Assembly (NCBI GenBank): GCA_964527195.1
Contig: CAZGOH010000001.1
Span: 9,505 to 73,504, forward strand
Direction: 5' to 3'
From: an uncultured Methyloversatilis sp.
GTDB lineage: Bacteria; Pseudomonadota; Gammaproteobacteria; Burkholderiales; Rhodocyclaceae
DNA: 64,000 nt
Below, in pieces: positions 3,343 to 61,204 of the stretch. The position numbers and the translations under genes were made by a program. The first letter of the stretch is position 1; each line of letters opens with the position of its first letter. Below the pieces are notes generated by a model. It did no database searches, was not told where the DNA came from, and saw only the letters and a list, made by a program, of their open reading frames with translations.

Positions 3343-4152
3343 TCAACGATAACGGTTGATCGCGGCGCGCGTTTCCTGCGCGACCTGGCGGGCGGCAGCG
3401 GCGAAGTCTTCGCCCTTGCTGGCATAAAGGATGGCGCGCGAGGAATTGATCATCAGGCCAGCGCCGTTTGCCGTCCTGCCGGCCTTGACGGTGGCCTCGA
3501 TGTCGCCGCCTTGCGCGCCGATGCCCGGGACGAGCAGCGGCAGATCACCGACGATCTCGCGCACGCGCGCGATCTCGCCGGGGAAGGTCGCGCCGACGAC
3601 GAGGGCACACTGGCCGGTCGTGTTCCAGTCTTTCGCCACCATGTGTGCGACCAGTTCAAAAATCGCCGTCCCGCCAGCGCCGACTTTTTGAAACTGCAGG
3701 TCGCTGCCGCCGGGATTCGAGGTGCGGCACAGCAGGATCACGCCCTTGTCTTTATAGGCGAGCCAGGGCTCGACCGAATCGCGGCCCATGTAGGGATTCA
3801 CGGTGACGGCATCCGCCTTGTAGCGCTCGAACGCCTCGATGGCGTATTGCTCCGCCGTGCTGCCGATGTCGCCGCGCTTGGCGTCGAGGATGACGGGAAC
3901 GCCCGGATGCTTTTCATGGATGTGGGCGATCAGTGCTTCGAGCTGATCCTCGGCACGATGCGCAGCGAAGTAGGCGATCTGCGGTTTGAAGGCGCAGGCG
4001 AGGTCGGCGGTGGCGTCGGCAATCTCGGCGCAGAAGCGCAGGATGTCGCCATTGAGGTGCGCGGGAAACTTGGCCGGATCGGGGTCGAGGCCGACGCAGA
4101 GCAGCGAATTGTTCTTCGCCCACGCAGTGGCGAGCATCTCGGTGAATTTCAT
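3343..4152 (-). CDS. pyrF: Orotidine-5'-phosphate decarboxylase
   Basis: [18 protein letters not shown] and [10 protein letters not shown] motifs. Confidence 0.96.
3664..3687 (-). repeat. 24-bp dispersed motif copy (in pyrF, KVGAGGTA)
   Basis: aaagtcggcgctggcgggacggcg. Confidence 0.9.
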
Positions 4153-4287
4153 TTCAGCACATCCTCAATCCAGTCCCACCGCATGTCCTTGACCATCACG
4201 AACCGGCACCGGTTCCAGCAGGCGGAACGGCACTTCCCTGTGGTGTTTGACGACGGCTTCCTTGCCGATCCAGTGGAGTGTGGGCAT
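4149..4287 (-). pseudogene. Deletion scar of a type III R-M locus (Mod N-terminus joined to Res C-terminus)
   Basis: ATG 4287 gives MPTLHWIGKEAVVKHHREVPFRLLEPVP; another frame ends [20 protein letters not shown]-stop, overlapping the pyrF ATG; homology recalled, not searched. Confidence 0.7.
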
Positions 4288-4683
4288 TCAGACAGAAAAG
4301 GGGTTGAGCACCGGGATGCCGCAGCCGGCGAAATCCGCCGTATTGCGGGTGACCAGTGTTAGCGCATGCACTTGCGCGGTGGCGGCGATGAACATGTCGG
4401 GTTGGCTGCGGACCATGCCGCGCGCGGCAAAGGCGCCGCGCAATTCGCCCGCGCGACGGGCAATCTCAAGCGTGACCGGCAAAACCGGGTGACGCAGCAG
4501 ATAGGTTTCGAACCATGCGGCAATGCGCGCATTGGGACGCCAGGCGAGGCCGAACATGATTTCATCGACGCTCACCGCGGAAATCGCATGCGTGGCCTCT
4601 TGCGCCGCCCACGCCGCCACCCCCGCATCGGGGTGCAAACGCCCAAGCTCGCTGATGATGTTGGTGTCAAGCAGCACGCGCAT
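4288..4683 (-). CDS. vapC: PIN-domain (VapC-family) toxin
   Basis: MRVLLDTNIISE...DMFIAATA...LVTRNTADF. Confidence 0.92.
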   Translation of the reverse strand: MRVLLDTNIISELGRLHPDAGVAAWAAQEATHAISAVSVDEIMFGLAWRPNARIAAWFETYLLRHPVLPVTLEIARRAGELRGAFAARGMVRSQPDMFIAATAQVHALTLVTRNTADFAGCGIPVLNPFSV

Positions 4684-4987
4684 GCGCTGCCGACTCCTCG
4701 ATTTCTTCCTGCATCGCAATAAAGGCATTCGGGCGGCCGACTGACGAACGCGGCAGTGCGGGCAATTCGTAATTTTCTTCGGCGGCGATCTGTCGCAATT
4801 CGGCAAATTCCTCGCCCAGGGTCTTGCGCGCTGCCAACTTGCGCCATTCGTCGAAGGCCCTGAAGGATTCCGCATCGATCACCGCAGCCACACAACGATC
4901 GCGGTTATAGATCATTTGCGGCTCTTCTGCGGTCAGTCGAACCACCTCGGAAAACTGCTGTTTGGCTTGGGCGATATTCCAGGTCAT
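4667..4987 (-). CDS. Phd/YefM-family antitoxin
   Basis: MTWNIAQAKQQFSEVVR...PQMIYNR; overlaps vapC. Confidence 0.88.
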   Translation of the reverse strand: MTWNIAQAKQQFSEVVRLTAEEPQMIYNRDRCVAAVIDAESFRAFDEWRKLAARKTLGEEFAELRQIAAEENYELPALPRSSVGRPNAFIAMQEEIEESAAHARAA

Positions 4988-5002
4988 GGCATTCCTCCAA
5001 TA

Positions 5003-7176: not shown

Positions 7177-7824
7177 TCAGGGCAGCTTGCCTGCGGCGAG
7201 CATGCGCTGGACGAGAATGGCCGCGGGCAGCCAGACGATGCGGTCGTCCGTCTCGGCGCTCGGGATACGATCGAACAGGGTCGGCGGCGTGGCCTCGGGC
7301 AGTTGCTCGATTGCGCCGTTGCGGCCGCGCGAGAACACCGCCGCCGGGAGATGGGTCGCCACGACAAGCGTGCAGGCGGCGTCGGCACAGACGCGAACGG
7401 TGCCGGGGGTGAGCAGGGCAAAACCGTCGGCGTGCGAAAACGCCGGTGCGACGACGTAGCCGAGCGGACGCTCCCAGGCGTCGCGACGGCCGACGCCGAG
7501 GTCGGCCCAGGGCAGGTCGCCGGCCGGGTTCGCGCAGGCACCGTCGTTGGCGCGATTTTCCACGCCGTCGCCATCGGTATCGGGACAGGGCAGGTGCGGG
7601 CGCGCCGGCCGGCGCGCGGCATGGCCGATCAGGACTTCGCTGGCCTCGCCGAGCAGACGGTCGGTGGCGGCGAGATCGCGCTGCTCGCGCTGGGCGGCCA
7701 GCGGCACCAGGGCGCTGCCAAGGAGCAGGGCGAGGACGAAGAACACCACGGCCATTTCGACGAGCGTGAAGCCGCGCAGGGCGAAAGTCGGCGCTGGCGC
7801 TACGGCGAAAGGGCGGGCTGCCAT
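7177..7824 (-). CDS. Type IV pilin / pseudopilin-like protein
   Basis: Class III signal RG/FTLVEMAVVFFVLALLLG; start placed at ATG 7824. Confidence 0.88.
   Translation of the reverse strand: MAARPFAVAPAPTFALRGFTLVEMAVVFFVLALLLGSALVPLAAQREQRDLAATDRLLGEASEVLIGHAARRPARPHLPCPDTDGDGVENRANDGACANPAGDLPWADLGVGRRDAWERPLGYVVAPAFSHADGFALLTPGTVRVCADAACTLVVATHLPAAVFSRGRNGAIEQLPEATPPTLFDRIPSAETDDRIVWLPAAILVQRMLAAGKLP
7784..7807 (+). repeat. 24-bp motif copy (antisense in pilin, AVAPAPTF)
   Basis: aaagtcggcgctggcgctacggcg. Confidence 0.85.
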
Positions 7825-10037
7825 GTGGCGGCGAAGTCGGTGATGCGCACCGCCTGGTCGGTGGTGCGCTGGGCGTTGGCGAAGCCGGGACGCAGGCTGC
7901 GCAAGGCGTCGGCGGCAGCGAAGTTGGCCGTGTCTTCCAGCAGGGGCGCGAAGTCGGCGGCGAGCTGGGTCATCGGGCGGGTGGTGTTTTGCATCGCGGC
8001 GATGCGGTTCGCCACCGCGGCGCTGTCCGCGAGCATCCAGACGCGCGTACGCAGTCGCGCGCCCGCCACGGTGGCGGGCAGCGGATCGAGTTCGACGCGC
8101 ACGTGGTAGAGGTAGCTGTCGCCGCCTTCCGTCGTCTTGCCGCGCAGGTCGCGAAAGGCCAGACCGGGCGAGGGGTACTGCGGATTGCGCGGCGGGGCGT
8201 CCGCCGCGGGCGAATTGGCGGGGAAGCCATGCACGTTGTCGTCGAAGCCGGGCTGGGTGACGCCGTCGGCGGCGTTTGCCGCCGTGTTCCCCCAGTAAAG
8301 GATCGCGACGTGCGAGTTGTAGCCGAGCCCGGCGCAACCGCTCCCCGTGGTGCCGCAGGGATCGTTGCGGCCGGCGTTCTGCGCGGTTTCGCCGCCACTG
8401 CCGGGAAAGCCGGTGTCGCGCGACTGGTCGAACTCGATGCCGATCTTTGGTGGCAGGATCGGCGGCGTGTGGGGGTTGATGCCGGAATAGCCCAGGTGGC
8501 TGCCGGCCGCGCCGCAGGCATTGGCGGTGTTGCGCTGCGCATCCGCCAGCACGAAAATGAAGCCGTTGGAGCCGACGTTGGTGCCGACCTGCCGAAAGCG
8601 GAAGCGGAAATAGATGCGCAGGCCGTCGCCGAGCGTGCGCGCCTCCGGCAGCCAGACGCAGCCATACAGGGCCGGCGCCAGCGCGTTGCCGAGCGTGCCG
8701 GTGACGACGTTTTCGCGGCCCAGTACCAGCGTCCGCGTCGTCGCGTCGTAGGCGGCGAGTTGTTGCGTTTCGGCAAGTGCGGGCGAGGTCACGGCAACGA
8801 AGGGCGCGCCGGCCGGAATGCAGCGCACGATGTCCTGTTCCGGCGCCTGCGGCGGGGCGCGGTCGAAGCGCGCCGCGCCGGTAAAGGCGGCCGTCGCGGC
8901 GCCGAAGCCGGCACGGTTCGCGCCTTCCAGGAAATGGGTGGCATCGGCGCGTTCTGCGGGCGTGAAGCGGCGCTGATGCGCTGCGCGTTGCCCGGCGAAA
9001 AGAAGCGCGGCGGCACAGTCGTCACGGCCATTGACCGTGAAGCTGCCGGTCGGCCGGGCGAGAAACAACTGATCGCGGACATGGCTGAAATAGCCGCGTG
9101 GCGTCTGGCTGTCGTCGTAACAGGCATCTTCGGGCAGGCGATCCGCGTAACCCGGGGGAATCGTCTGGCCGGCCAGGCAGGCGACGATGCGGTCGAGCAG
9201 GGCGTCGATGTCGGTGCGGAAAGCCGCCGATGCGCGCAGCGCCGCGAAGAGACGATCGGCGCCGAGCGGCTGCGCCCGGTCGTTGGCGCCCGCGTTGCCA
9301 TGTATGTCGCCCGGTCCGGGCAGCGTGAACATCTTCCGCGCGCTCGTGGCGTCGGTCGCGGCGGTGGCGCCATGCGTGCCGCCGAGCCGGTTGGGTGCCT
9401 CCAGATAATTCGCCGCGTCGTAATTGCCGCCGCACAGGTTCGTTGCATCGCCGCCGCGCCGCCCGCGCTCCTGCCCGGGCAGGGGCGGCCCGGCGGAGAA
9501 CACGATGGCGATCGGCTGCGCATGCGGCGTTGCGGGGACGACGCCGGCGATGGCGAAATGTCCGGCGCTGTCCCAGTTCATCGGTGCGAGTCGTTGCTGG
9601 CGCTGGTGGCTGGCGGAAACCGCGTACCACAGACACTCGCCGTGGCCGTCGCGTAGCGGCGGCAGGCCGAGGGTGCGCCAGGGCAGGCGGCCGAGGACGG
9701 AAACGCCGAGGGCGTTGCCGGCGAAGTTGGCGGCGTCGCAGCCTTCGAGAGTGCAGCCCGTGTTGTTGTTGCGCGTGCTGCCGAGGTCGGGCAGCGGCAG
9801 GTAGCCATACACCCGGTCGGGCTGCCCCTGGGCGGCCTGTTCGTCGCGGTAGCGCAGGGCGTGGGCGACGAGCGCGTCGGCGGCCCGGGCGAGCGCGGCC
9901 TGGGTGCGACGTTCGCGCGCGGCGGCGACCGCTTCGGGCGAGAGCGCGGCAAGGGCGGCCGACAACGTCACGGCGACCAGCAGGACGAGCAGGGCCAGCA
10001 GTACCGCGCCACGGGAACGTCGCCGCCGTGTCGTCAT
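7800..10037 (-). CDS. Large pilus-associated protein with PilX-like N-terminus and L-type-lectin-like C-terminal domain
   Basis: RGAVLLALLVLL N-terminus; C-terminal NGFIFVLAD...LGYSG...IGIEFD pattern. Confidence 0.7.
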   Translation of the reverse strand: MTTRRRRSRGAVLLALLVLLVAVTLSAALAALSPEAVAAARERRTQAALARAADALVAHALRYRDEQAAQGQPDRVYGYLPLPDLGSTRNNNTGCTLEGCDAANFAGNALGVSVLGRLPWRTLGLPPLRDGHGECLWYAVSASHQRQQRLAPMNWDSAGHFAIAGVVPATPHAQPIAIVFSAGPPLPGQERGRRGGDATNLCGGNYDAANYLEAPNRLGGTHGATAATDATSARKMFTLPGPGDIHGNAGANDRAQPLGADRLFAALRASAAFRTDIDALLDRIVACLAGQTIPPGYADRLPEDACYDDSQTPRGYFSHVRDQLFLARPTGSFTVNGRDDCAAALLFAGQRAAHQRRFTPAERADATHFLEGANRAGFGAATAAFTGAARFDRAPPQAPEQDIVRCIPAGAPFVAVTSPALAETQQLAAYDATTRTLVLGRENVVTGTLGNALAPALYGCVWLPEARTLGDGLRIYFRFRFRQVGTNVGSNGFIFVLADAQRNTANACGAAGSHLGYSGINPHTPPILPPKIGIEFDQSRDTGFPGSGGETAQNAGRNDPCGTTGSGCAGLGYNSHVAILYWGNTAANAADGVTQPGFDDNVHGFPANSPAADAPPRNPQYPSPGLAFRDLRGKTTEGGDSYLYHVRVELDPLPATVAGARLRTRVWMLADSAAVANRIAAMQNTTRPMTQLAADFAPLLEDTANFAAADALRSLRPGFANAQRTTDQAVRITDFAATWQPALSP

Positions 10038-10047
10038 GGCCGACTTT
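10024..10047 (-). repeat. Degenerate motif copy spanning a start codon
   Basis: aaagtcggccatgacgacacggcg. Confidence 0.65.
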
Positions 10048-10330
10048 CGGGGGGAGCCGGCGCGTCGGCCAGCCGGGGGCGCCCGTCGATCCAGAGCGTC
10101 GCCGGGCCGGCGGAGCGCTTCACATAGCCTTCGAGGCGTCCCGTAGCTTCGGGTTTCGGCGGCGACTGCCGGGGGATGGGCGTGTCGGCACGGCGTGCGC
10201 GCTCGCGTTCGGTGCGCTCTTCCGGCGTCAGGAAAAGCCGGCCGAGCGGCGGCGTCGCGTTGGCGGTCGCAGGGAAGGATGCCTGGGCGAGTCCCAGAGC
10301 GAGGCAGGCGAATCGCAACCGGGGCTTCAT
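10034..10330 (-). CDS. Exported hypothetical protein of the pilus cluster
   Basis: MKPRLRFACLALGLAQA signal peptide; LGRLFLTPEER motif. Confidence 0.7.
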   Translation of the reverse strand: MKPRLRFACLALGLAQASFPATANATPPLGRLFLTPEERTERERARRADTPIPRQSPPKPEATGRLEGYVKRSAGPATLWIDGRPRLADAPAPPESRP

Positions 10331-10896: not shown

Positions 10897-10903
10897 CGCG
10901 GTT

Positions 10904-12400
10904 TCACGGCGCCTGTTCGAGTTCGAAGGCGAAGCGCGGCGCATCGCTCGCGGCAGGCGCGGCACCGTCGGCCAGAATGGCTTCGGTCAGGTCGCCCTGG
11001 GGGGCGTCGAGCAGGCGGGCGGATAGGTCCGGCGCGGCGGCGAAGTGGGCCATGAACCCGGCAATTGCCGCCCGCTGCGCGTCGGGATCGCCGTAAAGAC
11101 GCGTCGGCAGGCGTGCCGCGACATGCATGCGCGCCGGGCCTCGGGAGGGAGCGGTGGACGGGTGTCGGGCCGGTTCGACGAGTTCCCAGTCGATCGCCTC
11201 CACGGCGATATCGGGAAAGGCGTCGAGCCCGTGGCTCAGGCGGACCAGCAGCGGTGCCGGGCCGACGGCGCGCCGCTGTGCCTCGGTGTGGCGGGCGACG
11301 AGGCGTTCCGCCGCCCCGGCGGGGAGCAAAGGCGCGTGCGGTGACGGCGATCGCTGCAGGAGACGTTCCCGTGCGGCGACGATTTCCGGCTGGATTTGCG
11401 CGAGCGCGGCGCGTTGCGCCGGCACCTCGGCGAGCAGAACACCGGAGGCGGCGAGAGCGAGCAGGAGCACACCCGCGCCGAGCGTATCGAGCGTGCGGCG
11501 CGCACGGTTGCGGCGATGGCGGGCGCGCTCGGCCGGCGACGCGAATTGCTGCGCCGGCGCCTTGAGGGCGAGCAGGCGGCAGAGCAGGGCGTCGGCATGC
11601 GGGTCGTCGCGGCGCGGCGCGAGCCCGAACTGTCGCGCCGCCGCATGGAGGTCGGCGCAGGTAAAGACCAGCGATGCGTCGTCCGGACAGAGGGCGTGCA
11701 GTGCGGGCAGCCAGTCGGGATGGGCGAGCACGCGCACCGCCAGGGGCTGTTCGCGTTCGAGCAGGCGTTGCCCGGCCAGATGCTGGCGCATGCGTACGGT
11801 TTCGGCATGCAGGGTTTCCGCCGGGTGTGCGACAGCGTCGCTTGCGGAGGGTGCCAGGCGGGAGAAGCGCAATTGGCCGCCATGGAAATAGGCCTGGCGC
11901 CAGCCGGCACGCGTCGGCAGGCAAAGCAGCAGGTGTGCGGGGCAGGCCTTGGGCAGCAGATGGTCGAGGAGTTGCGGCACGGCGTAAATCCCGGCGAGGG
12001 CGACATCGGCGGCATGCAGGGTTTCCACCCAGGGCGCGAGGGCTTGCGGGCGGGTCAGCGCCATCAGCAGCAGGCTCTCGTCGTGGCGCACGCCCGGGTG
12101 GCGCCCCCGGGAAAGCGCCAGGGCATACGGCGTGCAGCGAAAGTGCTGGGCGAGTCGGCGCCGCACGATGGCGGTACGCGCGCTGCCCCGGCTGGCGGGA
12201 ATGCTTTCCGCGCGGAAATCCTCGTCGGGGAGGTTGACCAGCAGGTCGTACGTCGCCTCCGGCTCTGTGGCGAGATGATTGGCGAAGGCCGCGAGCCCGC
12301 CGGCGTCGGCGCTGAAAGTCGGCCCCGGCGACACGGCGTCGCAGGGATCCCGGAGGCCGGTTTCGTCGGCAGACAGCAGAAGGATGCGTCGCGTTGCCAC
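10904..12400 (-). CDS. PilM-PilN / GspL-like alignment protein
   Basis: Cytoplasmic N-terminal domain (LRFSRL), central TM helix, periplasmic tail; follows the F-family gene. Confidence 0.65.
   Translation of the reverse strand: MATRRILLLSADETGLRDPCDAVSPGPTFSADAGGLAAFANHLATEPEATYDLLVNLPDEDFRAESIPASRGSARTAIVRRRLAQHFRCTPYALALSRGRHPGVRHDESLLLMALTRPQALAPWVETLHAADVALAGIYAVPQLLDHLLPKACPAHLLLCLPTRAGWRQAYFHGGQLRFSRLAPSASDAVAHPAETLHAETVRMRQHLAGQRLLEREQPLAVRVLAHPDWLPALHALCPDDASLVFTCADLHAAARQFGLAPRRDDPHADALLCRLLALKAPAQQFASPAERARHRRNRARRTLDTLGAGVLLLALAASGVLLAEVPAQRAALAQIQPEIVAARERLLQRSPSPHAPLLPAGAAERLVARHTEAQRRAVGPAPLLVRLSHGLDAFPDIAVEAIDWELVEPARHPSTAPSRGPARMHVAARLPTRLYGDPDAQRAAIAGFMAHFAAAPDLSARLLDAPQGDLTEAILADGAAPAASDAPRFAFELEQAP
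12315..12338 (+). repeat. 24-bp motif copy (antisense, AVSPGPTF)
   Basis: aaagtcggccccggcgacacggcg. Confidence 0.85.
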
Positions 12401-15320: not shown

Positions 15321-17110
15321 TTCTGCCTGAAGAACCCGGTATCCGGCAGCCGGTCGCGATAGGCGGAATAGTCGCCGCGCACACTGGCGCTGGCGATCAC
15401 CGTGGGGCGCAGGAAGATCACCAGTTCGGTCTTGCTGCTGCGGTCGCTGGTGTTTCGGAACAGCCGGCCGATCACCGGCAGGGCGGCGAGGCCGGGCGTC
15501 GTGTCGTCGAGCCTGCGCATTTCTTCCTGCATGAGGCCGCCCATGACGGCGATTTCGCCGCTGGCGATGCGCACGATCGATTCCATTTCGCGCGTCTGGA
15601 TTTTCGGCACGCGATTGATCACGCCGGCGCGGGCGAGTTCCGGGTTGGGGTCGTTGACGTAGCCGGTGACGCGCGTGATGGTCGGCCGGATGTTGATGGT
15701 CACTTCGTTCTCGGCGCTGATCTGCGGTGTCACGTTCATGACGAAACCGACGGTGAGGGAATTCGGCGTCGAGGTGTAGGTGGTGTGCGAGAGGCCGCCG
15801 CCGCTCGTCGTGGTGAGCGATTTCAGCGTGAAATACACCTCGTCCTCGGCCACCTTCAATGTCGCGGTCTGGTTGTTCATCACGCTCAGCTTGGGGCTGG
15901 AAAGCACCTTCACCGTGCCGAAGGATTCGAGCAGGCTGATTTCGACGGCCAGGCTGCCCAGGGCGGTAGCGGGGTTGGCGTAGGCGAGCGTGAAGAAATT
16001 GAGCGGATTGGCGCTCGGCAGCGGCGGCGAGGTGCCGGCCTGCTGGACGATGCGGAAGCCGCGGGCGCCGTTCCGCAGCGCCGACCAGTCGATGCCCTGC
16101 TGGTATTCGTTGCTGAGATTGACCTCGACGACGGTGGCTTCGATCAGAACCTGCCGTTTCGCCGTGTCCATCACCAGATCGAGAAAGCGGCGGATCTTGT
16201 CGTGCTGGCGCCGGGTGGCGCGGACGATCAGCACGCCGGTCTCCTTGTTGGCGAACACCGAGGCGGAAGGCTCGAATTCGCCGATCTTGCGCCGCGCGGC
16301 GGCGCGGGTATCGACCTGCTGGTCGCCGCTGCCGGTGACGCCCGGCCCGGTCGCCTCGGCGGCGCCGTCGGGCTGGCGCACGCGGCCGCCGGCGGACAGC
16401 GCCGCATGGCCCGAGCCTGCCGCGACGACCTGCGCCGCCACTTCCGTTTCGATGCTGGCACGGTAGCGGAGGCGGTCTTCCTCGCGCAACATGTCGGCGA
16501 CGTTGGCGATCAGACTTTCCATCAGGTCGTTGCGCGTGTCGCTGCGCACGGTGGTCGAGGCCGAGTTGCCGTCGGCGCCGTTCGGCGCTTCCCCCACCGC
16601 GTTGGCGATCTGGGTGGCGGTGGCGATTTCGCTTTTCACCACGCGCGTCATGTTGGGGAAATCGATGCGGTAGGTTTCCAGGTAGGGCCTGTCGGGCATG
16701 ATCGCCAGATTTGATCCGTCCAGATCCCAGCGGATGTCGATCTGGCGGGCGATGCGGTCGAGCAGGCGCGGCAGGCTGGCGTCGACGGCGTTGAGGGTTA
16801 CCTGGCCGGTGATGCCCGGGTGCACGTCGATGTTGAGCCGCGCATCGCGCGCGAGCGCGAACAGCAGCTCGCGCGCCGGCACGTTATCGACCACGACGCT
16901 GTAGGTTTCCGCCGGAACGGACAACGGTTGTTCCGGTCGCGCGGGCGCCGTCATGGTGCGGGGCGGTGGCACGGCTTCCGGCGCCGTCCTATCGATGCCG
17001 ACTTTCGCGTCGGATTGGCGCAGATGGCTGCCGACAGGGGCGCCGGGCGGCGCATGGCTGCAAGCCGCGAGTGCCGATACGGCGAGCGCCAGTAGAATGT
17101 GAAATTGCAT
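15317..17110 (-). CDS. Lipoprotein secretin (MshL/GspD-like)
   Basis: Lipobox LAAC; QVLIEATVVEV, LSSPKLSVMNNQ, KTELVIFLRP. Confidence 0.92.
   Translation of the reverse strand: MQFHILLALAVSALAACSHAPPGAPVGSHLRQSDAKVGIDRTAPEAVPPPRTMTAPARPEQPLSVPAETYSVVVDNVPARELLFALARDARLNIDVHPGITGQVTLNAVDASLPRLLDRIARQIDIRWDLDGSNLAIMPDRPYLETYRIDFPNMTRVVKSEIATATQIANAVGEAPNGADGNSASTTVRSDTRNDLMESLIANVADMLREEDRLRYRASIETEVAAQVVAAGSGHAALSAGGRVRQPDGAAEATGPGVTGSGDQQVDTRAAARRKIGEFEPSASVFANKETGVLIVRATRRQHDKIRRFLDLVMDTAKRQVLIEATVVEVNLSNEYQQGIDWSALRNGARGFRIVQQAGTSPPLPSANPLNFFTLAYANPATALGSLAVEISLLESFGTVKVLSSPKLSVMNNQTATLKVAEDEVYFTLKSLTTTSGGGLSHTTYTSTPNSLTVGFVMNVTPQISAENEVTINIRPTITRVTGYVNDPNPELARAGVINRVPKIQTREMESIVRIASGEIAVMGGLMQEEMRRLDDTTPGLAALPVIGRLFRNTSDRSSKTELVIFLRPTVIASASVRGDYSAYRDRLPDTGFFRQK
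16982..17005 (-). repeat. Degenerate motif copy (secretin, KVGIDRTA)
   Basis: aaagtcggcatcgataggacggcg. Confidence 0.65.
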
Positions 17111-21015: not shown

Positions 21016-22501
<1,486 letters not shown>

Positions 22502-24470: not shown

Positions 24471-25535
24471 TCAAGCGCCGAGAATTTCCCTCAATGCGGC
24501 AATTAACGTCGCGCACTGTTCATCGGTGCCGACGGTGATGCGCAGAAACTGCTCGATGCGCGGCAGCCTGAAATGCCGCACGATGATGCCGCGTCGCCGT
24601 AGCGCCAGCGCCGACTTTGCGGCGTCGTGGCGCGGGTGGCGCGCGAAGACGAAATTGGCGCTCGACGGCAGCACCTCGAAACCGAGGGATTCCAGGTCGC
24701 GCGTCAGCGTTGCCCGGGTAAGCATCACGGCCTGGCGCGTGCGCTCGAACCATTCGCGGTCCTCGATGGCCGCCGTGGCGCCGGCGATGGCGAGGCGGTC
24801 GAGCGGGTAGGAGTTGAAGCTGTTCTTGACGCGATTCAGCGCGTCGATGAGATCGGCGTGGCCAATGGCGAAACCGACGCGCAGCCCGGCGAGCGAACGC
24901 GATTTCGAGAAGGTCTGCACGACGAGCAGGTTCGGGTGCCGATTCACCAACGCCACCGCCGACTCGCCGCCAAAATCGACGTAGGCCTCATCCACCAGAA
25001 CCACCGAATCGGGGTTCGCCTTGACCAGGGCATCGATGTCCGCGAGCGGGAGGGCGCGGCCGGTCGGCGCGTTCGGGTTGGCGATGACGATGCCGCCGTT
25101 GGCCAAAGAGTAATCGGCGATGCGCAGGGAAAAGTTTTCGTCCAGCGGCACGGTGCGGTAGTCGATGCCGTAGAGCCCGCAATAGACCGGATAGAAACTG
25201 TAAGTGATGTCGGGAAACAGGATCGGCCGGTCGTGCTTGAGCAGGGCGAGGAAGGCATGACCCAGCACCTCGTCCGAGCCGTTGCCGACGAAGACCTGGT
25301 TGGGGGCGATGTCGCCGAAATATGCGGCGATGGCTTCGCGCAGGCGCGTGCTTTCGGGGTCGGGATAGAGCCGCAAACCGTCGCCGATTTCGCTGCGCAG
25401 GGCCTCCAGCACGCGCGGGCTCGGGCCGTAGGGGTGTTCGTTGGTGTTGAGCTTGACGAGGTCGGGCAGTTTGGGCTGCTCGCCCGGGACGTAAGGTTGC
25501 AAGGCGCGGACGGTGGCGCTCCAGAATCGGCTCAT
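24471..25535 (-). CDS. hisC: Histidinol-phosphate aminotransferase (opposite strand to flanking his genes)
   Basis: [41 protein letters not shown]. Confidence 0.93.
24595..24618 (-). repeat. 24-bp motif copy (hisC, KSALALRR)
   Basis: aaagtcggcgctggcgctacggcg. Confidence 0.85.
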
Positions 25536-27651: not shown

Positions 27652-27675
27652 CGCCGTCCCGCCAGAGCCGACTTT
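27652..27675 (-). repeat. 24-bp motif copy filling the hisA-hisF spacer
   Basis: aaagtcggctctggcgggacggcg. Confidence 0.9.
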
Positions 27676-42426: not shown

Positions 42427-42450
42427 CGCCGTGTCGCCAGGACCGACTTT
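42427..42450 (-). repeat. 24-bp motif copy (intergenic, upstream of dapF)
   Basis: aaagtcggtcctggcgacacggcg. Confidence 0.85.
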
Positions 42451-42463: not shown

Positions 42464-43318
42464 TCAATACGGCTTTTTTTCTCCCGGCGGGCGGGTCTTG
42501 AAGCGCTTGTGCAGCCACAGGTACTGCTCGGGCATCTTGAGGATTTCCTCTTCGATGTAGGCGTTCATGCGGCGCGTGTCGGCCTCGATGCTTGCGCCGG
42601 GATAGTCCGTCCAGGCGTCGCGGATTTCGATGAGGTAGTGGTCCGGCGCCATGCGCGCGATGACCGGCACCACCGCCGCGCCGGTCATGCGTGCCAGTCG
42701 CGAGAGCCCGGTGATGGTCGCCGCCGGCACCCCGAAAAACGGCACGAAGATCGTGTCGCGGCTGCCGTAATCCATGTCCGGCAGATAGTAAAAGGGCTTG
42801 CCGGCCTTCATCGCCCGGATGGCGCGGCGCGTGCCTTCCTGGCGCGACAGCAGTTCCGAATCGCCGAAACGCCGGCGGCCGCGATACAGCGCCGCGTTGA
42901 ACAGCAGGTTCTTCTGATTGGCGTAAATGCTCACCATGTCGCGCTCGAGCGTGAGCCGCGTCCAGCCCATGTCGAGGCCGACGAAATGCGGCACCAGCAG
43001 GATGACCGGCCGGCCGGGCGGAATGCGCTCCAGCCCGGTAACCTGCACGAGCCGACGGATGCGCGCCGGGGAGGCCCACCACAACAGGCCGCGCTCGAGA
43101 AAACTGCGCCCAAACATCTCGAAGTGGCGTATCGCCAGGGCCGACTTTCGTTCGTCCGTCATCTGCGGAAAGCACAGGCCGAGGTTGGTGAGCGTCACAT
43201 GGCGCCGTTCGTGGCCGAAACGGAAGAGCAGGCGGCCCAGCAGGCGGCCGAGCACGGTCAGCGCCGGCAGGGGCAGCCAGTGCAGCAGCCACATCAGGGC
43301 GAGAACGAGACGCGTCAT
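42464..43318 (-). CDS. Lipid A late acyltransferase (LpxL/HtrB family)
   Basis: [29 protein letters not shown]. Confidence 0.92.
43125..43148 (-). repeat. Degenerate motif copy (acyltransferase, KSALAIRH)
   Basis: aaagtcggccctggcgatacgcca. Confidence 0.65.
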
Positions 43319-45106: not shown

Positions 45107-46194
45107 ACATCCCCATGCTGGATCTCAAGGCCGAATACGCCTTGCTCAAGGACGAAATCGAACCGGCGGTTTGCGCCGCGCTGGCCGCCTGCCAGTACAT
45201 CGGCGGGCCGAACGTCAAGGCCTTCGAGGCCGAGGCGGCCGCCTACGCGGGCGTGAAGCACGCCATTTCCTGCGCTTCGGGGACCGATGCGCTGCTGCTG
45301 GCCCTGCGCGCCGCCGGCGTCGGTCTCGGCGACGAAGTGGTCACGACGCCCTTCACCTTCGTCGCCACCGCGTCGACCATTCTCATGTGCGGTGCGACGC
45401 CGGTCTTCGTCGATATCGACCCGCGCAGCTTCAACATCGACATCGCCCAGGCGATGGCGGCCGTCACGCCGCGCACCCGGGCCATCGTGCCGGTGCATCT
45501 CTTCGGCCAGCCGGTCGACCTGGCGCCGCTGAAAACCCTGTGCGCCGAGCGTCGCATCGCGCTGATCGAGGATGCCGCGCAGTCCTTCGGCGCCGACTAC
45601 GGCGGCCGCAAGTCGGGCGCCTACGGCGACATCGGCTGCACGTCGTTTTATCCGTCGAAGAACCTTTCCGCCTTCGGCGACGGCGGGCTGGTCGTCACCG
45701 ACGACGACGCGCTCGCCGCCGAATTGCGCGTGCTCGCCTCGCATGGCTCGCGGGTGCGCTACCACCATCACGTGCTCGGCTACAACTCGCGGCTCGACGA
45801 AATCCAGGCCGCGATCCTGCGCATCAAGTTGAAGCGGCTCGACCAGTTCAACGCGCGCCGTATCGCCATCGCCGACTTTTACAATCAACTGCTCAGCGGG
45901 ATCGTTGAAACGCCTTGCGCCGACGGCAGGGGCCGTCACGTCTATCACCAATACACGTTCCTTTCGGATCGGCGCGACGTGATCCAGCAGGCGCTGACCG
46001 CCGCCGGCATCGCCTGCGCCGTCTATTATCCGGTGCCGCTGCACCAGCAGGAGATGTTCGCCGCCACGCACGGCAAGCTCAGCCTGCCGGTGGCCGAGCG
46101 CACGGCACAGCGCTGCCTCTCGCTGCCGATCTCGCCCATGCTGCAGGACGCGCAGATCGAGCGTATCGCTGCCGTGGTCAAGAGCGCCGCCTGA
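45103..46194 (+). CDS. DegT/DnrJ/EryC1/StrS aminotransferase (GnnB-like)
   Basis: SGTDAL, EDAAQSFG, SFYPSKNL, NSRLDEIQA. Confidence 0.9.
   Translation: MNIPMLDLKAEYALLKDEIEPAVCAALAACQYIGGPNVKAFEAEAAAYAGVKHAISCASGTDALLLALRAAGVGLGDEVVTTPFTFVATASTILMCGATPVFVDIDPRSFNIDIAQAMAAVTPRTRAIVPVHLFGQPVDLAPLKTLCAERRIALIEDAAQSFGADYGGRKSGAYGDIGCTSFYPSKNLSAFGDGGLVVTDDDALAAELRVLASHGSRVRYHHHVLGYNSRLDEIQAAILRIKLKRLDQFNARRIAIADFYNQLLSGIVETPCADGRGRHVYHQYTFLSDRRDVIQQALTAAGIACAVYYPVPLHQQEMFAATHGKLSLPVAERTAQRCLSLPISPMLQDAQIERIAAVVKSAA
45856..45879 (-). repeat. 24-bp motif copy (antisense in aminotransferase, RRIAIADF)
   Basis: aaagtcggcgatggcgatacggcg. Confidence 0.8.
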
Positions 46195-48296: not shown

Positions 48297-48320
48297 AAAG
48301 TCGGCGCCGGCGGCACGGCG
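48297..48320 (+). repeat. 24-bp motif copy (intergenic, after metK)
   Basis: aaagtcggcgccggcggcacggcg. Confidence 0.88.
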
Positions 48321-51100: not shown

Positions 51101-52501
<1,401 letters not shown>

Positions 52502-52553: not shown

Positions 52554-52559
52554 GCAATC

Positions 52560-52907
52560 ATGCCCAATCTCTCGATCAAGGATGTGCCTGAAACGCTGGC
52601 CGAGGCCCTGCGCCAGCGTGCCGCGCGCAACCATCGCTCCTTGCAGGGCGAGTTGATGGCGCTGCTGGAGGCAGCGGTGCAAACGCCGATGGCGGCGCCT
52701 GGCGTGCGCGAGCCGGCCGTTCCCCCTTACATCGCCGCTCCCTTGCCCGCCGCCGCCGGCCAGGACGATCTGCTCGCCAGGCTGGATGCCATCGTCGCCG
52801 GCAGCCAATGGGGCAGCGCGCCCCTGCTGTCGCGCGAACAGATCCATGATCGCCGGCTGCTGCGCGAGCTGGAACATGACGTACGCCAGACAGAGAGCAC
52901 GCATTGA
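52560..52907 (+). CDS. Arc/FitA-like ribbon-helix-helix antitoxin
   Basis: MPNLSIKDVP...RAARNHRSLQGEL. Confidence 0.85.
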   Translation: MPNLSIKDVPETLAEALRQRAARNHRSLQGELMALLEAAVQTPMAAPGVREPAVPPYIAAPLPAAAGQDDLLARLDAIVAGSQWGSAPLLSREQIHDRRLLRELEHDVRQTESTH

Positions 52908-53332: not shown

Positions 53333-56300
53333 GCGCCCGCGACAAATTTCTCGCCCTGTTGAGAGATGAAATCCTCCAGATGGACTTGTCCGAACTGGAC
53401 TTCGGCCTCTACCGCATTCTCAACTACAAGCGCGAGGAAGTCGCCCGTTTTCTCGATAACGAACTGCCCGCCGAAATCGCCCGCCGGCTGGCCGCTCTGC
53501 CCGGCGCTCCCGGCGAAGACGAAGAAGCGCGCATCTACAACGCCCTCACCGTTTTTTTCTCGCGCTATTTCGTCGAGGCCGACTTCATGCCGCGCGCACG
53601 GCGCGGCAAACACGCCGCCTACAGCGTGCCCTACCGCGGCGAGGACACCCATTTCCACTGGGCCAGCAAAGGCAGCCACTACATCAAGAGCGGCGAACGC
53701 TTCGCCGCCTACGCCTATGTCGAGCCGGCCGGCCGGCGCGTGCGCTTCGTTGTCGCCGCTGCCGATGTGCAAAAAGACAACGCCAAGGGCGACAAGCGGC
53801 TGTACGTTCCCGCCGACGGCAGCGAAGTCGATGGCGAATGGCGCATCGCCTTTGCCTGGCGTCCCCTCGACAAGGACGAAAACAAGCGTTACGGCGGCAA
53901 GTCCAAAGACGGCGCGGCGGAGGGCGACGAAGCCGACGCCGGGGGCGACGCCAACGATGCCGGCACGGGCGCCCCGGCGGCCGCCGGCCGCGACACGCAA
54001 ACGCGCCTGCTCAACGCCTGGCTGGCCGGCGACGACTTCAAGGCCGCGCGCCTGCCCAAGGACATCGACCGCGACCTGCTCGCCAAACACGCGCATCGCT
54101 ACGTCAAGGGCCAAAGTAGCGACTTCTTCGTGCACCCGAGGCTGGCCGAGTTTCTGGAGGGCGAACTCGACTACTACCTCAAGAACGAATTCGTCAATCT
54201 CTGGGACCTGCCCGACGGCGCGGCGCTCTTGCGCGAACGCGAGAAATGCAAAGTCGTCGGCCATCTCGCCCGCGCCATCATCCGCCTGCTCGCCGCCGTC
54301 GAAGACGTGCAGGCCATCCTCTTCGAAAAGCGCAAATTCGTCCTCGCCGCCCACTACCTGGCCCAGGCCTCCTGGCTGTTGCGCGAAGGCGGCGCAGCGG
54401 GCCGGGCGTTGGTGGGCGAAGCGGCGCAAAACACGGCCCAAGTCGCCGAATGGCGGCGCTGGGTCGGCGACGACAAAGCCTCTGGCGATAACCTGCTCGA
54501 ACGCCACCCCCACCTGCCGATCAACACCGCGCACTTCGACGATGACTTTCAATGGCGCCTGCTCGCCTGCTTCCCCGACCTCACCGCCGCCCTCGGCGGC
54601 ACGCTGATCCACGGCGACAACTACGCCGCCCTGCGGACGCTGGAACCGGCTTACAAGCAGGGGGTGAAGTGCATCCATATTGATCCGCCCTACAACACGG
54701 CGACGAGCGGCTTTTTCTACAAGAACGATCTCCCGCATGCCTCATGGTTAAGCATGATGTTTGGCCGTTTAGGGTGCTCGAAGATGCTGCTCTCAGCTCA
54801 GGGAAATTTTCTTTGCCATATTGACGAGCACGAATACGAGCGGCTGCATGTTCTGTGTGCAGAGATGGATTTGGCAGACGCAGGTACGATCATCTGGGAC
54901 AAGAGAAACCCGATGACGGGAGGTGCAGGAGTCGCGACTCAACACGAGTACATCCTTTGGCGGACAACGGAAGAATGCAAGCTTTATCAAAGCAACCAGA
55001 ATATCCAGGCAATATTGGACAAGGCGGCTGAAGTGCTTGCCAAGCATGGTGGCGATAGCAATGCGGCACAGAGTGAGTTTTCTGCGTGGATAGACGCTGG
55101 TGAAAGCTTGAGCGGCGGCGAAAAAGCCTACCGATACCTTGACGCGAAGGGCCGGGTGTATCAATCCGTCAGCCTGCGTGCACCGGAATATCGGCACGAG
55201 GAAAAATTCCGTCAGCCCTTGATCCATCCAGTCACGGGCAAACCGTGTCCCGTGCCGCCCAACGGTTTTTCCAGGACACCGGAAAATCTTGCCGAAATGA
55301 TGTCGCCCCGACGTGACGAAATTCTTTTCGGCCCCGACGAGACAACGCAGCCAAGGCAAAAACTCATCTTGAAACCGTCCACACGGCGGCCCGTTACTTC
55401 CGTGCTGCAAGACGCCAAGAAAGGCAAGGCCAATCTGGACGCATTGGGTTTGACATTTCCTTACTGCCACCCTGTTTCCTTGTACGAGAACCTGACGGGA
55501 TCGGCGATGGAGTCGAATGACTACTGCCTCGACTTCTTCGCCGGTTCCGGCACCACCGGCCATGCCGTCATCAACCTGAACCGCGAGGATGGCGGGCAGC
55601 GGAAATTCATCCTCGTCGAACAGGGCGAGTATTTCGACACCGTGACCCTGCCGCGCATCGCCAAGGTGATGACCTGCCCGGACTGGAAGGATGGCCGGCC
55701 CAAAGTCGGCGCTGGCGGGACGGCGGCAGACGAGGCGCCCGATCACTGGTCGCGCCGCACTCTGCCGCTGGTGCAGGTGTTGCGCCTGGAACGCTACGAG
55801 GACAGCCTGGACGCGCTCGAACTGCCCGCCGACCGCACCGCCCGGCTGGCGGGACAAAGCGGTTTCGCCGCGCTCGACACGGTGCTGCATTACCTGAGCG
55901 ACGCCGTGGCCGAGGACACCACCTTGCGCCTGTCCACCGCGAAACTGACTCGCCCCTTCGACTACCGCCTGCCGGTCACCCACGAAGGCCGCTACGGCGA
56001 AGCGACGGTCGATCTGGTGCACACCGGCTTTTTGCTCGCCGGCCTGCATCCGCTGCGCCTGCGCCGGGTAGAACGCGACGGCCGCCCGACGGTGCTGGCG
56101 GAAGTGCGCCCGCACGGCGCGCCGGAGCGCATCGAACTGGTGTTCTGGCGCGACGTGGATGAAAGTCTGGCGCCGGAGGCCTTGAGCGCAGCGGCGCAAG
56201 CCGAATATGACTGGCTGGCGGCAACGGTGCGCGAAGTTTTCGACCGCCCGTTGGCCGACTATGCCTGCATCTGGCACAACCGCGATTTGCTGCTGCTGGG

Positions 56301-59519: not shown

Positions 59520-60343
59520 GCATGAACGCGTTTCATGCGCGCACCGCACGGCCGCGGCCGAAGGCGCATCCGCTGCGGCAGGCCGCCGCCGCACCCTTGG
59601 GCGTTCGTGCCGATGCCCTGCTCGTCCAGCAGGGGCGCGCGCCCTCGCGCACGGCGGCGCAGCGGCTCATCGAGGCCGGCCGCGTGAAAGTCGGTCCTGG
59701 CGGGACGGCGGTGACGAAGCCGTCGCTGCTCTTGGCCGAAGATGCCGAACTAATCGTCGCGCCCGCGCCCGACCTCGACTACGTTTCGCGCGGCGGCCTC
59801 AAGCTGGCCGGGGCCTTGCGGCACACGGGCATCGACGTGCAGGGTTGTGACTGCCTCGACATCGGCCAATCGACCGGCGGCTTCACCGACTGCCTGCTGA
59901 AAAACGGCGCCGCCAAGGTCGTTGGCATCGATGTCGGCCACGGCCAGCTGCACCCGACGCTCGCGGCCGATCCGCGCGTCGAGTCGCACGAACAGGTCAA
60001 TGCCCGGCACCTCGAAAAGTCGGCGCTGGCGGGACGGCAATTTGATTTCATCACGGCCGATGTGAGCTTCATCTCCCTCACGCTGATCCTGCCGCAACTG
60101 CCACCGCTGCTGACCAAGCTTGGCGACCTGCTTTTGCTGGTCAAGCCGCAATTCGAAGTCGGCCCCGAGCACATCGGCAAGGGCGGCATCGTGACTGACC
60201 ATTGCTTGTATCCCATGGTGCACGACAAGCTCACGGCCTGCTGCACCGAACACCACTTCGTCGTCGCCGACTGGTTCGAAAGTCCCATTACCGGCAGCGA
60301 CGGCAACCATGAATTCTTTCTTCACGCCCGCCATGACCACTGA
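59516..60343 (+). CDS. tlyA: TlyA-family RNA methyltransferase
   Basis: S4-like RADALLV, YVSRGGLKL, DIGQSTGGFTD, KPQFE. Confidence 0.92.
   Translation: MSMNAFHARTARPRPKAHPLRQAAAAPLGVRADALLVQQGRAPSRTAAQRLIEAGRVKVGPGGTAVTKPSLLLAEDAELIVAPAPDLDYVSRGGLKLAGALRHTGIDVQGCDCLDIGQSTGGFTDCLLKNGAAKVVGIDVGHGQLHPTLAADPRVESHEQVNARHLEKSALAGRQFDFITADVSFISLTLILPQLPPLLTKLGDLLLLVKPQFEVGPEHIGKGGIVTDHCLYPMVHDKLTACCTEHHFVVADWFESPITGSDGNHEFFLHARHDH
59687..59710 (+). repeat. 24-bp motif copy (tlyA, KVGPGGTA)
   Basis: aaagtcggtcctggcgggacggcg. Confidence 0.9.
60016..60039 (+). repeat. 24-bp motif copy (tlyA, KSALAGRQ)
   Basis: aaagtcggcgctggcgggacggca. Confidence 0.9.
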
Positions 60344-61163
60344 AATCTCTTTCGAATTTTTTCCCCCGCAATCGACCGACGGCCTCGACAAACTGCGTGC
60401 CGTGCGCGGCCGCCTCGCCGAGGCGCAGCCGACTTTCTTCTCCGTGACCTACGGCGCCGGCGGCTCGACGCGTGAGCGCACCTTTGACGTGGTGATGGAA
60501 ATCGCCGCCGAAGGCCATGCCGCCGCGCCGCACTTGTCGTGCATCGGTTCGACGCGGGAAGGCATTCGCCGAATCCTCCACGACTATCGCGACCACGGCA
60601 TCCGCCGTCTCGTCGCCTTGCGCGGCGACCTGCCTTCCGGCATGGCCGATGCCGGCGAGTTTCGCTACGCCAACGAACTAGTCGAATTTATCCGCCAGGA
60701 AACCGGCGACACCTTCCGCATCGAAGTCGCCGCCTACCCGGAATGGCACCCACAGGCGAAAAGCCCGCGCGACGATCTGCGCGCGTTCAAACGCAAGGTC
60801 GATGCCGGCGCCGATTCGGCGATCACGCAGTTCTTCTACAACGCCGATGCCTACGCCCACTTTGTCGCCGAAGCACGTGCGCTCGGCGTCACCATCCCGA
60901 TCGTGCCGGGCATCATGCCAATTGGCAGTTTCTCGAAGCTCGCCCGTTTTGCGGACTCCAGCGGTGCCGAAATTCCGCGCTGGATGCGCAAGAAGTTCGA
61001 GAGCTTTGGCGACGATGCCGATTCGATCCGCGCCTTCGGCCTCGATGTCGTCACCGAGCTGTGCGAGCGCCTGATCGCGCTCGGCGCGCCCGGGCTGCAC
61101 TTCTACACGCTCAACCAGTCGACGCTGTCGCTGGAGATCGTGCGCCGCCTTCGTCTCGTCTGA
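60333..61163 (+). CDS. metF: 5,10-methylenetetrahydrofolate reductase
   Basis: SFEFFPP, SVTYGAGG, LRGDLP, ITQFF, HFYTLN. Confidence 0.97.
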   Translation: MTTEISFEFFPPQSTDGLDKLRAVRGRLAEAQPTFFSVTYGAGGSTRERTFDVVMEIAAEGHAAAPHLSCIGSTREGIRRILHDYRDHGIRRLVALRGDLPSGMADAGEFRYANELVEFIRQETGDTFRIEVAAYPEWHPQAKSPRDDLRAFKRKVDAGADSAITQFFYNADAYAHFVAEARALGVTIPIVPGIMPIGSFSKLARFADSSGAEIPRWMRKKFESFGDDADSIRAFGLDVVTELCERLIALGAPGLHFYTLNQSTLSLEIVRRLRLV

Positions 61164-61180
61164 GACGCGCGACGCCGTCC

Positions 61181-61204
61181 AAAGTCGGCCCCGGCGGGAC
61201 GGCG
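61181..61204 (+). repeat. 24-bp motif copy (intergenic, after metF)
   Basis: aaagtcggccccggcgggacggcg. Confidence 0.9.

Follow-up and report, generated by a model that had tools for sequence, protein, structure and literature searches.

DNA uptake sequences are confined to the Neisseriaceae and the Pasteurellaceae in the literature that we searched, which included a 2025 survey of 177 genomes. The DNA uptake sequence (DUS) of the Neisseriaceae is AT-GCCGTCTGAA together with its dialects, and its receptor is the minor pilin ComP. The uptake signal sequence (USS) of the Pasteurellaceae has a 9-bp core, AAGTGCGGT or ACAAGCGGT, with phased flanks that bring it to about 29-32 bp in total. Among other repeated words of bacterial genomes, cyanobacterial HIP1 (GCGATCGC) is reported to improve transformation (2024 preprint 10.1101/2024.09.10.611283), and the hairpin repeats NTS/SRM are cut by Ssn nucleases, with 2% of NTS lying in genes (PMC11893778). 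Here we describe a dispersed 24-bp motif with the consensus AAAGTCGG-YSCY-GGCG-NN-ACGGCG, which is present in 16 strong and 2 degenerate copies in a 64,000-nucleotide stretch of contig CAZGOH010000001.1 from an uncultured Methyloversatilis sp. (assembly GCA_964527195.1). This whole stretch is called the window below. The motif string was not found in the literature searched.

By analogy with the known systems, we consider it somewhat probable (about 55%) that the motif enhances DNA uptake in a Rhodocyclales clade to which Sulfuritalea, Sulfurisoma, and Sulfuricystis belong.

Results

The motif exceeds chance, composition, and codon usage

The exact core AAAGTCGG occurs 20 times in the window, compared to 1.72 ± 1.21 times (maximum 5) in dinucleotide-preserving shuffles, and the 24-mer AAAGTCGGYSCYGGCGNNACGGCG has 16 matches in the window at two or fewer mismatches versus none in any shuffle. 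A first-pass annotation of this DNA had listed at least 18 dispersed copies and about 20 exact cores where roughly one was expected by chance, and both counts held up. A position weight matrix (PWM) was built from the window copies, and with this matrix mononucleotide shuffles of the window almost never scored above 17 bits. The PWM scan found all 18 of the previously listed positions again, 16 of them at 33–38 bits and two as degenerate copies (the one at 16982 scores 11.8 bits; the one at 51550 scores 21.7 bits and has no exact core). Cores at 18796, 59215, and 60429 stand alone, and their number is near the chance expectation. The blocks had also been described as having fixed spacing and the word as non-palindromic, in agreement with the single ungapped register that fits every window copy and with the asymmetry of the word, whose self-structure is not significant (folding z -0.2 to -0.8). 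Information content falls to background immediately outside the 24 bp at both ends of the window copies, and no conserved flanks or larger surrounding element were found around either these or the copies in related genomes.

The annotation had further proposed a codon-shuffled null. In the coding DNA of the window, 15 cores were observed, compared to 3.0 ± 1.6 under a synonymous-codon shuffle that preserved the proteins and 1.4 ± 1.2 under a shuffle of codon order. Chance, composition, and codon bias are thereby excluded as the source of the motif, which has a density in the window of about 0.25-0.28 per kb, or one copy every 4 kb or so.

The motif is restricted to a clade of Rhodocyclales

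The exact pattern was scanned over one genome per GTDB species, and 820 kb of matching loci were retrieved (loci carry L numbers below). Matches were found in at least 118 stretches, belonging to 55 or more assemblies, and among the matches listed the carriers were nearly all metagenome-assembled genomes (MAGs) named Sulfuritalea, Rhodocyclaceae, Rhodocyclales, or Sterolibacteriaceae. Isolates with the motif include Sulfurisoma sediminicola BSN1, from the pattern scan, and Sulfuricystis multivorans, from a locus anchored on MetF. The 820 kb held 241 copies above 20 bits, of which 123 were additional to those that had anchored the retrieval. As a negative control, we used 80 metagenome loci of other betaproteobacteria, anchored on relatives of MurA (62–83% identity) and amounting to about 1 Mb of similar GC content; these were devoid of the motif except for one copy in L121. 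In the comparison with related genomes that had been called for, the motif is restricted to a Rhodocyclales clade including Sulfuritalea, Sulfurisoma, and Sulfuricystis.

Loci L119, L120, and L122 are syntenic with positions 17–28 kb of the window, with MurA 78–82% identical and other shared proteins 56–87% identical, and they contain no copy in 52 kb, where about 15 were predicted from the window density. Further syntenic loci were found by way of MetF homologues, and their copies were counted per 20.8 kb. There were eight in L325 (ERZ25039527 contig_8219, in a dialect form), six in L326 (GCA_036848595.1), four each in L319 (GCA_030824115.1) and L321 (GCA_054685575.1), two in L323 (Sulfuricystis multivorans AP018718.1), and none in L324 (Sterolibacteriaceae MAG5). 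A k-mer and repeat search for an alternative word in L119, L120, L122, and L324 was insensitive, in that it missed the positive control too. The L121 copy (L121:1665-1688) lies in a contig of low GC content (51%) whose MurA is 82% identical to that of the window, and it occupies the same murA loop, which is 4–6 residues longer in L121 than in the other homologues. Since this contig is 51% GC, the motif is not confined to high-GC genomes. A different element, of 36 nt (TCACGGTCAACCGTAAAATTTGCC…), occurs three times in inverted orientations in the motif-free relative L122 (8187-8225, 13741-13777, and 15832-15867); an operator or a further family of repeats is possible.

Dispersed copies change in concert

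The consensus of the related genomes is (A)AAAGTCGGCGCTGGCG-RN-ACGGCG. At position 9, 96% of related-genome copies have G, compared to C or G about equally in the window, and position -1 is A in 64% of related-genome copies and rarely so in the window. The window genome therefore has a mild dialect of its own at positions 9 and -1. A stronger departure is seen in L325, where 7 of 8 copies have AAAGTCAG and 6 of 8 end in A (AAAGTCAG…ACGGCA), including copies at sites that are orthologous to canonical copies of other genomes. Outside L325, the A6 form, which has A in place of G at position 6, is limited to scattered single variants, and it was found in 3 viral contigs compared to at least 120 with the canonical form. 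The L325 assembly has many frameshifted genes, but GTCGG is not depleted there outside the motif, so that a general basecalling or methylation artifact is unlikely to underlie the dialect. The concerted change of dispersed copies in L325 points to a trans-acting reader with a shifted specificity, a pattern known from DUS dialects.

Coding copies arose by substitution, and sites are both conserved and turned over

The copy in the hisC-like gene (24595) is collinear with motif-free orthologues in L119, L120, L122, L192, and L196, and collinear replacement was likewise observed for L016 versus L116, for L116 versus L004 and L016, and for L046 versus L068. Because they are collinear with motif-free orthologues, the coding copies arose by substitution. 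Exceptions are of two kinds, the MurA copies, whose loop varies in length and has 2–6 additional residues, and the intergenic copy at 27652, where the spacer is longer than in L119 and L120.

Several window sites are occupied in other genomes too. The site at 43125, in the lipid A acyltransferase gene, is occupied in L323 and L326, and in L325 in dialect form; the site at 42427, in the spacer between that gene and dapF, is occupied in L326 and L325. Of the two sites in the TlyA-type gene, the one at 59687 is occupied in L326 and, in dialect form, in L325, and the one at 60016 in L319/L320, L323, and L326; the motif-free TlyA alleles of L321 and L324 are 4 amino acids longer at the latter site. 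The site that follows metF (61181) is occupied in L321/L322 and L325. The lpxL-like, TlyA-type, and post-metF sites are thus common to different genera. Over five ungapped shared sites, the 20 constrained positions of the motif are 95% identical, compared to 70% for the four internal variable positions and 79% for the flanks, and it is therefore the word itself that is constrained rather than its surroundings. Roughly one alignable site in two is unshared, from which it follows that copies also turn over.

Two observations were made alongside these alignments. In L079 (689-733), the motif is split by a 21-bp insertion between GGGA and CGGCG; its orthologues in L023, L052, and L106 are uninterrupted. 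In L319 (1613-4960) and L321 (1556-4945), a gene for an SNF2/ResIII helicase of about 1,120 amino acids, which the window does not have, lies between metK and a hemerythrin gene, and a motif copy occupies an identical site within this helicase gene in the two loci.

Copies sit in tolerant places and in mixed orientation

Genes of the window were called with a codon-usage model, and most were annotated by Pfam, NCBIfam, and PADLOC. Fourteen of the 18 window copies lie in or at the edge of genes, 10 sense and 4 antisense and in several frames, and the other four are intergenic, each 3–18 nt past a stop codon. The host genes are ordinary (pyrF-like, murA, hisC-like, P-type ATPase, lipid A acyltransferase, DegT aminotransferase, and ahcY, along with the TlyA-type gene with its two copies, four genes of an MSHA-type operon, and a type III mod gene).

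Placement statistics were taken from 219 copies of related genomes, with the integron array L035 left out. About 60% of copies lie within genes and 37% are intergenic, compared to about 15% of the DNA being non-coding, which corresponds to an enrichment in spacers of about 2.4-fold. Of the coding copies, 69 are in sense and 59 in antisense orientation. Most use one of four frames, namely KVGAGxTA (the commonest, and an unremarkable peptide), KSALAxRR, and the antisense frames RRxASADF and AVxPAPTF, and the two frames rich in Arg and Trp are almost unused. Convergent spacers are the densest, with 21 copies in 14.9 kb, compared to 31 in 49.8 kb of tandem and 12 in 23.5 kb of divergent spacers; in tandem spacers, the majority of copies are within 60 nt of the upstream stop codon. 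The copies thus sit in spacers, tolerated frames, and variable protein segments, and a permissive placement of this kind is likewise described for DUS and USS (preprint 10.1101/2025.10.24.684340). One perfect inverted pair was observed, in L065 (1360-1412), where two copies separated by 5 nt form a long hairpin (-38.5 kcal/mol, z -12) like the terminator pairs of DUS and USS.

The strand count of 8 plus and 10 minus given by the first-pass annotation is borne out, and the orientations are interleaved along the window (-+-+-+------+-++++). In the related loci, neighboring copies have the same orientation in 55 cases and opposite orientation in 43, as would fit an absence of polarity. A polarity of 85% is rejected for both the related loci (P = 6e-5) and the window (P = 0.003), and the strict replichore polarity that the annotation had considered is thereby set aside; a weak polarity of 75% is compatible with the data (P = 0.12 for the loci and 0.057 for the window). 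The spacing of window copies is somewhat more even than random (coefficient of variation 0.67, P = 0.046).

Copies in viral contigs, integrons, and a restriction-modification island

The canonical pattern was found in at least 120 IMG/VR contigs. The density of extra copies is 0.051 per kb in the motif-positive viral contigs and 0.150 per kb in host loci, a threefold difference. Depletion in prophages and islands had been suggested as a check; density is lower in the viral contigs, and copies are also present in a phage-like contig, in integron cassettes, and on a restriction-modification (R-M) island.

Several of the contigs filed as viral, and also L035, are integron cassette arrays. L035 (1-6122; Sulfuritalea MAG JALHPU010000019.1) is a chromosomal integron array with attC-like sites every 450-600 bp, in which paralogous cassettes without an open reading frame (ORF) have two motif copies each, about 265-270 bp apart, with nine copies in 6 kb. 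In the IMG/VR contig L234 (629-4269), a 316-bp ORF-less cassette with attC and one motif is repeated 4.7 times at 91% identity; the array adjoins an integron-type tyrosine recombinase gene that is frameshifted, being split over two frames, and L234, although filed as viral, looks like an integron. In L207 (7634-7681 and 8470-8517) and L218 (7773-7830), the motif precisely fills the interval from the attC core (GTTAGGC-type) to the ribosome-binding site (RBS) and start codon of the next cassette ORF, as the first cassette sequence past the recombination point. In every such array (L035, L234, L207, and L218), the motif is antisense to the direction of the cassettes. Only 7 of 386 copies abut an attC-like core, so these form a subset and the link to cassettes does not explain the motif. 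The motif being itself an integron attC site was rejected, as it lacks the RYYYAAC … GTTRRRY cores and sits in cassettes beside real attC sites.

The R-M island of the window (52548-59519) lies between ahcY and the TlyA-type gene and encodes a PIN toxin with a FitA-like antitoxin, along with a type III R-M pair (mod, 1010 amino acids; res, 1057 amino acids). The whole island is missing in the syntenic L319, L321, L324, and L326, and of its genes L323 (S. multivorans) has those for toxin and antitoxin alone. Elsewhere in the window, another PIN-domain toxin gene (4288-4683, within 4288-4987, minus strand) overlaps a small ORF upstream of it (4667-4987), whose product could be the corresponding antitoxin.

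The individual window copies and the MSHA-type operon

Four of the window copies fall in an MSHA-type pilus or secretion operon (7177-17110, minus strand), three of them at gene starts. The operon encodes a MshL-type secretin that passes the NCBIfam equivalog cut-off, a MshE-type ATPase with a c-di-GMP-binding N-terminus, and a GspF/PilC platform protein, then four proteins without a family match (498 amino acids, 189 amino acids, a secreted one of about 98 amino acids, and one of 745 amino acids with an N-terminal membrane helix), and last a 215-amino-acid prepilin-like protein. Neither the prepilin-like nor the 745-amino-acid protein gave informative sequence similarity to solved structures. 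In L122, a secretin homologue (46% identity) is found at the same position without the motif. The degenerate copy 16982..17005 (minus strand; AAAGTCGGCATCGATAGGACGGCG, 11.8 bits) is in the secretin gene (15317-17110, minus strand), sense and in frame 0, and its middle block has decayed with both outer blocks intact. The copy at 12315..12338 (plus strand, 35.3 bits) is antisense near the 5' end of the gene for the 498-amino-acid protein (10904-12400, minus strand). At 10024..10047 (minus strand, 2 mismatches, 33.3 bits), the copy is at the start of the 745-amino-acid gene (7800-10037, minus strand) and contains both the ATG of that gene and the TGA of a small upstream ORF in an ATGA overlap. 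The copy at 7784..7807 (plus strand, 36.5 bits) is antisense in the prepilin-like gene (7177-7824, minus strand), where it encodes part of the leader peptide, AVAPAPTF, and it also overlaps the 3' end of gene 7800-10037.

Sense copies in frame 0 are found in five other genes. These are at 3664..3687 (minus strand; AAAGTCGGCGCTGGCGGGACGGCG, 38.4 bits) in a pyrF-like orotidine monophosphate (OMP) decarboxylase gene (3343-4152, minus strand; KVGAGGTA); at 21440..21463 (plus strand, 34.5 bits) in murA (21245-22501, plus strand), in the length-variable surface loop where L121 has the motif at the same site; at 38193..38216 (minus strand, 36.3 bits) in a heavy-metal P-type ATPase gene (37455-39893, minus strand); at 55702..55725 (plus strand), a perfect consensus copy of 38.4 bits, in the type III R-M methyltransferase gene mod (53329-56361, plus strand); and at 59687..59710 (plus strand, 37.1 bits) in the S4+FtsJ (TlyA-type) methyltransferase gene (59516-60343, plus strand; KVGPGGTA). 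The second copy of the TlyA-type gene, at 60016..60039 (plus strand, 36.6 bits), ends in ACGGCA and is read in frame 2 (KSALAGRQ), as are the sense copies at 24595..24618 (minus strand, 36.5 bits; KSALALRR) in a hisC-like class I/II aminotransferase gene (24471-25535, minus strand) and at 43125..43148 (minus strand, 2 mismatches, 33.4 bits) in the lpxL-like lipid A acyltransferase gene (42464-43318, minus strand). Antisense copies are at 45856..45879 (minus strand, 37.1 bits) in a DegT/DnrJ-type aminotransferase gene (45103-46194, plus strand) and, degenerate (GAAGTCGGCGCTGACAGGACGGCA, 21.7 bits), at 51550..51573 (minus strand) in the S-adenosylhomocysteine hydrolase gene ahcY (51101-52501, plus strand).

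The intergenic copy 27652..27675 (minus strand, 36.5 bits) begins 3 nt past the stop of gene 26906-27649 (plus strand) and ends 5 nt ahead of the start of 27681-28439 (plus strand), two genes that read as hisA and hisF from their translations alone. That at 42427..42450 (minus strand, 36.7 bits) separates the lipid A acyltransferase gene, whose stop it follows by 13 nt, from the downstream dapF (41551-42414, minus strand). The remaining two are in convergent spacers, 48297..48320 (plus strand, 35.0 bits) 10 nt past the stop of metK (47010-48287, plus strand) and 61181..61204 (plus strand, 35.8 bits) 18 nt past the stop of metF (60309-61163, plus strand). Both lie in weak hairpins without a T tract, the former in a 9-bp hairpin made by variable bases of the motif and 3 flanking nt, the latter through pairing of an upstream GACGCCGTCC with the 3' block of the motif.

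Discussion

The first-pass annotation had taken the motif for a lineage-specific uptake signal or a genome-wide protein-binding mark, and the field has narrowed to these two, with chance, repetitive extragenic palindromic (REP) sequences, miniature inverted-repeat transposable elements (MITEs), transposase systems, and strongly polar sites of the Chi or FtsK-orienting polar sequence (KOPS) kind excluded. What remains is a sequence-specific, trans-acting reader that would act on all copies in the genome. The inference that we favor is that this reader would be an uptake receptor, that the hosts would be naturally competent, and that drive rather than selection would keep the copies. The transformation machinery would, in such a model, have a DNA receptor at the cell surface (a type IV minor pilin, to judge by analogy) that preferentially binds double-stranded DNA bearing the word, its favored form being (A)AAAGTCGG-YGCY-GGCG-NN-ACGGCR. 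Fragments carrying the word would be imported and recombined more often than other DNA, and point mutations that create or improve it would spread through the population by molecular drive, with purifying selection limiting copies to tolerant places. Under molecular drive, the roughly 1,000 sites of 36 bits per genome (extrapolated from the window density) could be maintained and changed in concert without selection on each.

Several observations weigh against a role in uptake. No gene or experiment ties the motif to uptake, and reports of uptake sequences or natural competence in Rhodocyclaceae or Sulfuritalea were not found in the literature searched. The MSHA type is the only pilus system of the window, and its prepilin-like protein has no similarity to solved pilin receptors. 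At about 36 bits, the word is long and rich in information, which is much for drive alone to build. The spacer copy at 27652 corresponds not to substitutions but to a gain in length of about 28 nt over L119 and L120, which have no motif. Copies also occur in mobile DNA: the phage-like L277 (with an ejection protein, endolysin, and methyltransferase) has three copies, a density like that of the host, further copies are in the ORF-less cassettes of L035 and L234 and the cassette arrays L207 and L218, and the perfect copy at 55702 is in the mod gene of an island. Finally, inverted pairs are nearly lacking, with that of L065 being the only one among about 240 copies, unlike DUS and USS, and none of the three intergenic copies within the scanned interval 42,000–61,900 overlaps a terminator-like site (27652 is outside that scan).

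The main alternative, which we regard as unlikely, though with real points in its favor, is that the motif is the genome-wide site of a clade-specific protein other than an uptake receptor, such as a nucleoid organizer, a recombination or repair cofactor, or a self-DNA mark, for which a defense or nuclease system is the candidate reader, and that the sites are kept by selection. The enrichment, the clade restriction, the conserved sites, and the dialect need only a sequence-specific reader and not uptake, the asymmetric tripartite layout with GGCG three times after AAAGTC resembles a protein footprint of more than two helical turns, and the copies in the phage-like contig and the R-M gene fit a self mark that mobile DNA gains from copying. 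The density in viral contigs is, however, lower and not higher than in host DNA, and some 1,000 sites of 36 bits, many in conserved proteins at a cost in amino acids, would be hard to hold by selection on each. Concerted dialect change, moreover, is predicted by drive and would be costly for an essential binding network. The sites of known chromosome-organizing systems (parS, matS, and those of SlmA and Noc) number in the tens per genome, are mostly palindromic, and are regionally confined, and are in these respects unlike the motif.

A repeat that spreads by copy-and-paste or gene conversion, as a minimal mobile element with a possible link to integrons or phages and the ability to insert itself at new positions, appears improbable to us. 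It would account for the extra nucleotides of the 27652 spacer copy, for the coincidence of the MurA copies with a loop of 2-6 extra amino acids, and for the ORF-less cassettes, with one or two copies each and always antisense, together with the copies of L207 and L218 between attC core and RBS. Coding copies, however, are collinear replacements without insertions, there are no terminal repeats, hairpin, conserved flanks, or target duplication, the internal variable positions drift like the flanks, which is unexpected of a copied element, few copies abut an attC-like core, and the window copies have no transposase or RAYT gene nearby. A polar guide read directionally by RecBCD/AddAB or FtsK, like Chi or KOPS, is very improbable. 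The density of the motif, about 1 per 4 kb, is comparable to that of Chi in Escherichia coli, and the weak polarity of 75% would be allowed, but 24 bp with fixed internal spacers is far from words of 5-8 nt, the orientations are interleaved, and the stronger polarity is rejected. We assign next to no probability to an origin of the pattern in base composition, codon usage, or a recurring peptide, in which case the DNA word itself would have no function: although KVGAGxTA is a peptide of no particular note, the full word has no match in shuffles, the core exceeds both the synonymous and the codon-order nulls, the copies use four frames on both gene strands and are 37% non-coding, and relatives of similar GC content lack the motif over about 1 Mb.

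A broader proposal, to which we give even odds, is that the motif represents a third, independently evolved family of uptake sequences and the first outside the host-associated Neisseriaceae and Pasteurellaceae, a 24-bp tripartite word of free-living Rhodocyclales with its own dialects and presumably its own receptor, which would also mark integron cassettes and resident phages as self for transformation. Self-preferring DNA uptake would then be a general evolutionary outcome and not a peculiarity of mucosal commensals. The receptor and its DNA would offer a new pair with natural dialects for the study of how specificity and genome co-evolve, as well as a route to the genetic manipulation of Sulfuritalea-group bacteria and a sequence tag for metagenome binning. 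If the reader is not an uptake receptor, about 1,000 concertedly changing sites of 36 bits would point to a new genome-wide DNA-reading system.

Comparison with known systems

Chi and KOPS resemble the motif as over-represented, non-palindromic words that occur in genes at kilobase-scale density, but they have 5-8 nt and are co-oriented with replication, whereas the motif has 24 bp and mixed orientation. REP/BIME, MITE, and NTS/SRM elements are likewise dispersed, lineage-specific repeats with hundreds of copies, and NTS also modulate transformation. These elements differ, however, in forming hairpins, in being nearly all extragenic, and in being tied to a dedicated nuclease or transposase gene. 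They are excluded as an identity for the motif, which has no hairpin, is about 60% intragenic, and in coding copies swaps bases one for one. The link to a REP or transposase system that the first-pass annotation had raised did not materialize, as no transposase or RAYT gene is near the copies among the annotated window genes. HIP1 is highly iterated and lineage-specific and is found in and between genes, as is the motif, but it is an 8-bp palindrome tied to a methyltransferase site and not an asymmetric word of 24 bp.

The USS and the motif are both long, asymmetric words of several blocks with fixed spacing, present on both strands. The majority of copies of both are intragenic, where they favor some frames over others and fall in protein segments of low conservation, and both are enriched in spacers. 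They also share an origin by point substitution, a lineage-specific distribution with subtypes, and a density of the same order. The sequences are unrelated save for a chance AAAGT.CGG, and the motif is rich in G+C throughout, whereas USS flanks are rich in A/T. The string resemblances to USS (AAAGTGCGG) and DUS (GCCGTC) on which the annotation had remarked are not evidence of relatedness and are treated as coincidence; GCCGTC arises only with G at variable position 17, as in 8 of the 16 strong window copies. Compared to USS, the motif is almost without inverted pairs, has no association with terminators in the scanned part of the window, and belongs to free-living environmental Rhodocyclales rather than host-associated Gammaproteobacteria.

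The DUS differs in that the motif is twice as long and has two variable gaps, and in that DUS often forms inverted-repeat terminators, of which the motif has a single such pair. A protein resembling ComP was not identified. Both words belong to Betaproteobacteria, where each spans a clade and has dialects particular to single genomes, with a coordinated change of its dispersed copies. Conservation of sites between species is common to both, and both occur in genes and spacers without polarity; DUS is sparser in mobile DNA, and the motif is sparser in viral contigs. Permissive placement, frame bias, origin by substitution, conserved sites, dialects, and lack of polarity are features of DUS and USS (10.1101/2025.10.24.684340; PMC2817400, PMC3630211) that the motif matches; lower density in mobile DNA is likewise described for DUS and USS, and for the motif it is seen in viral contigs.

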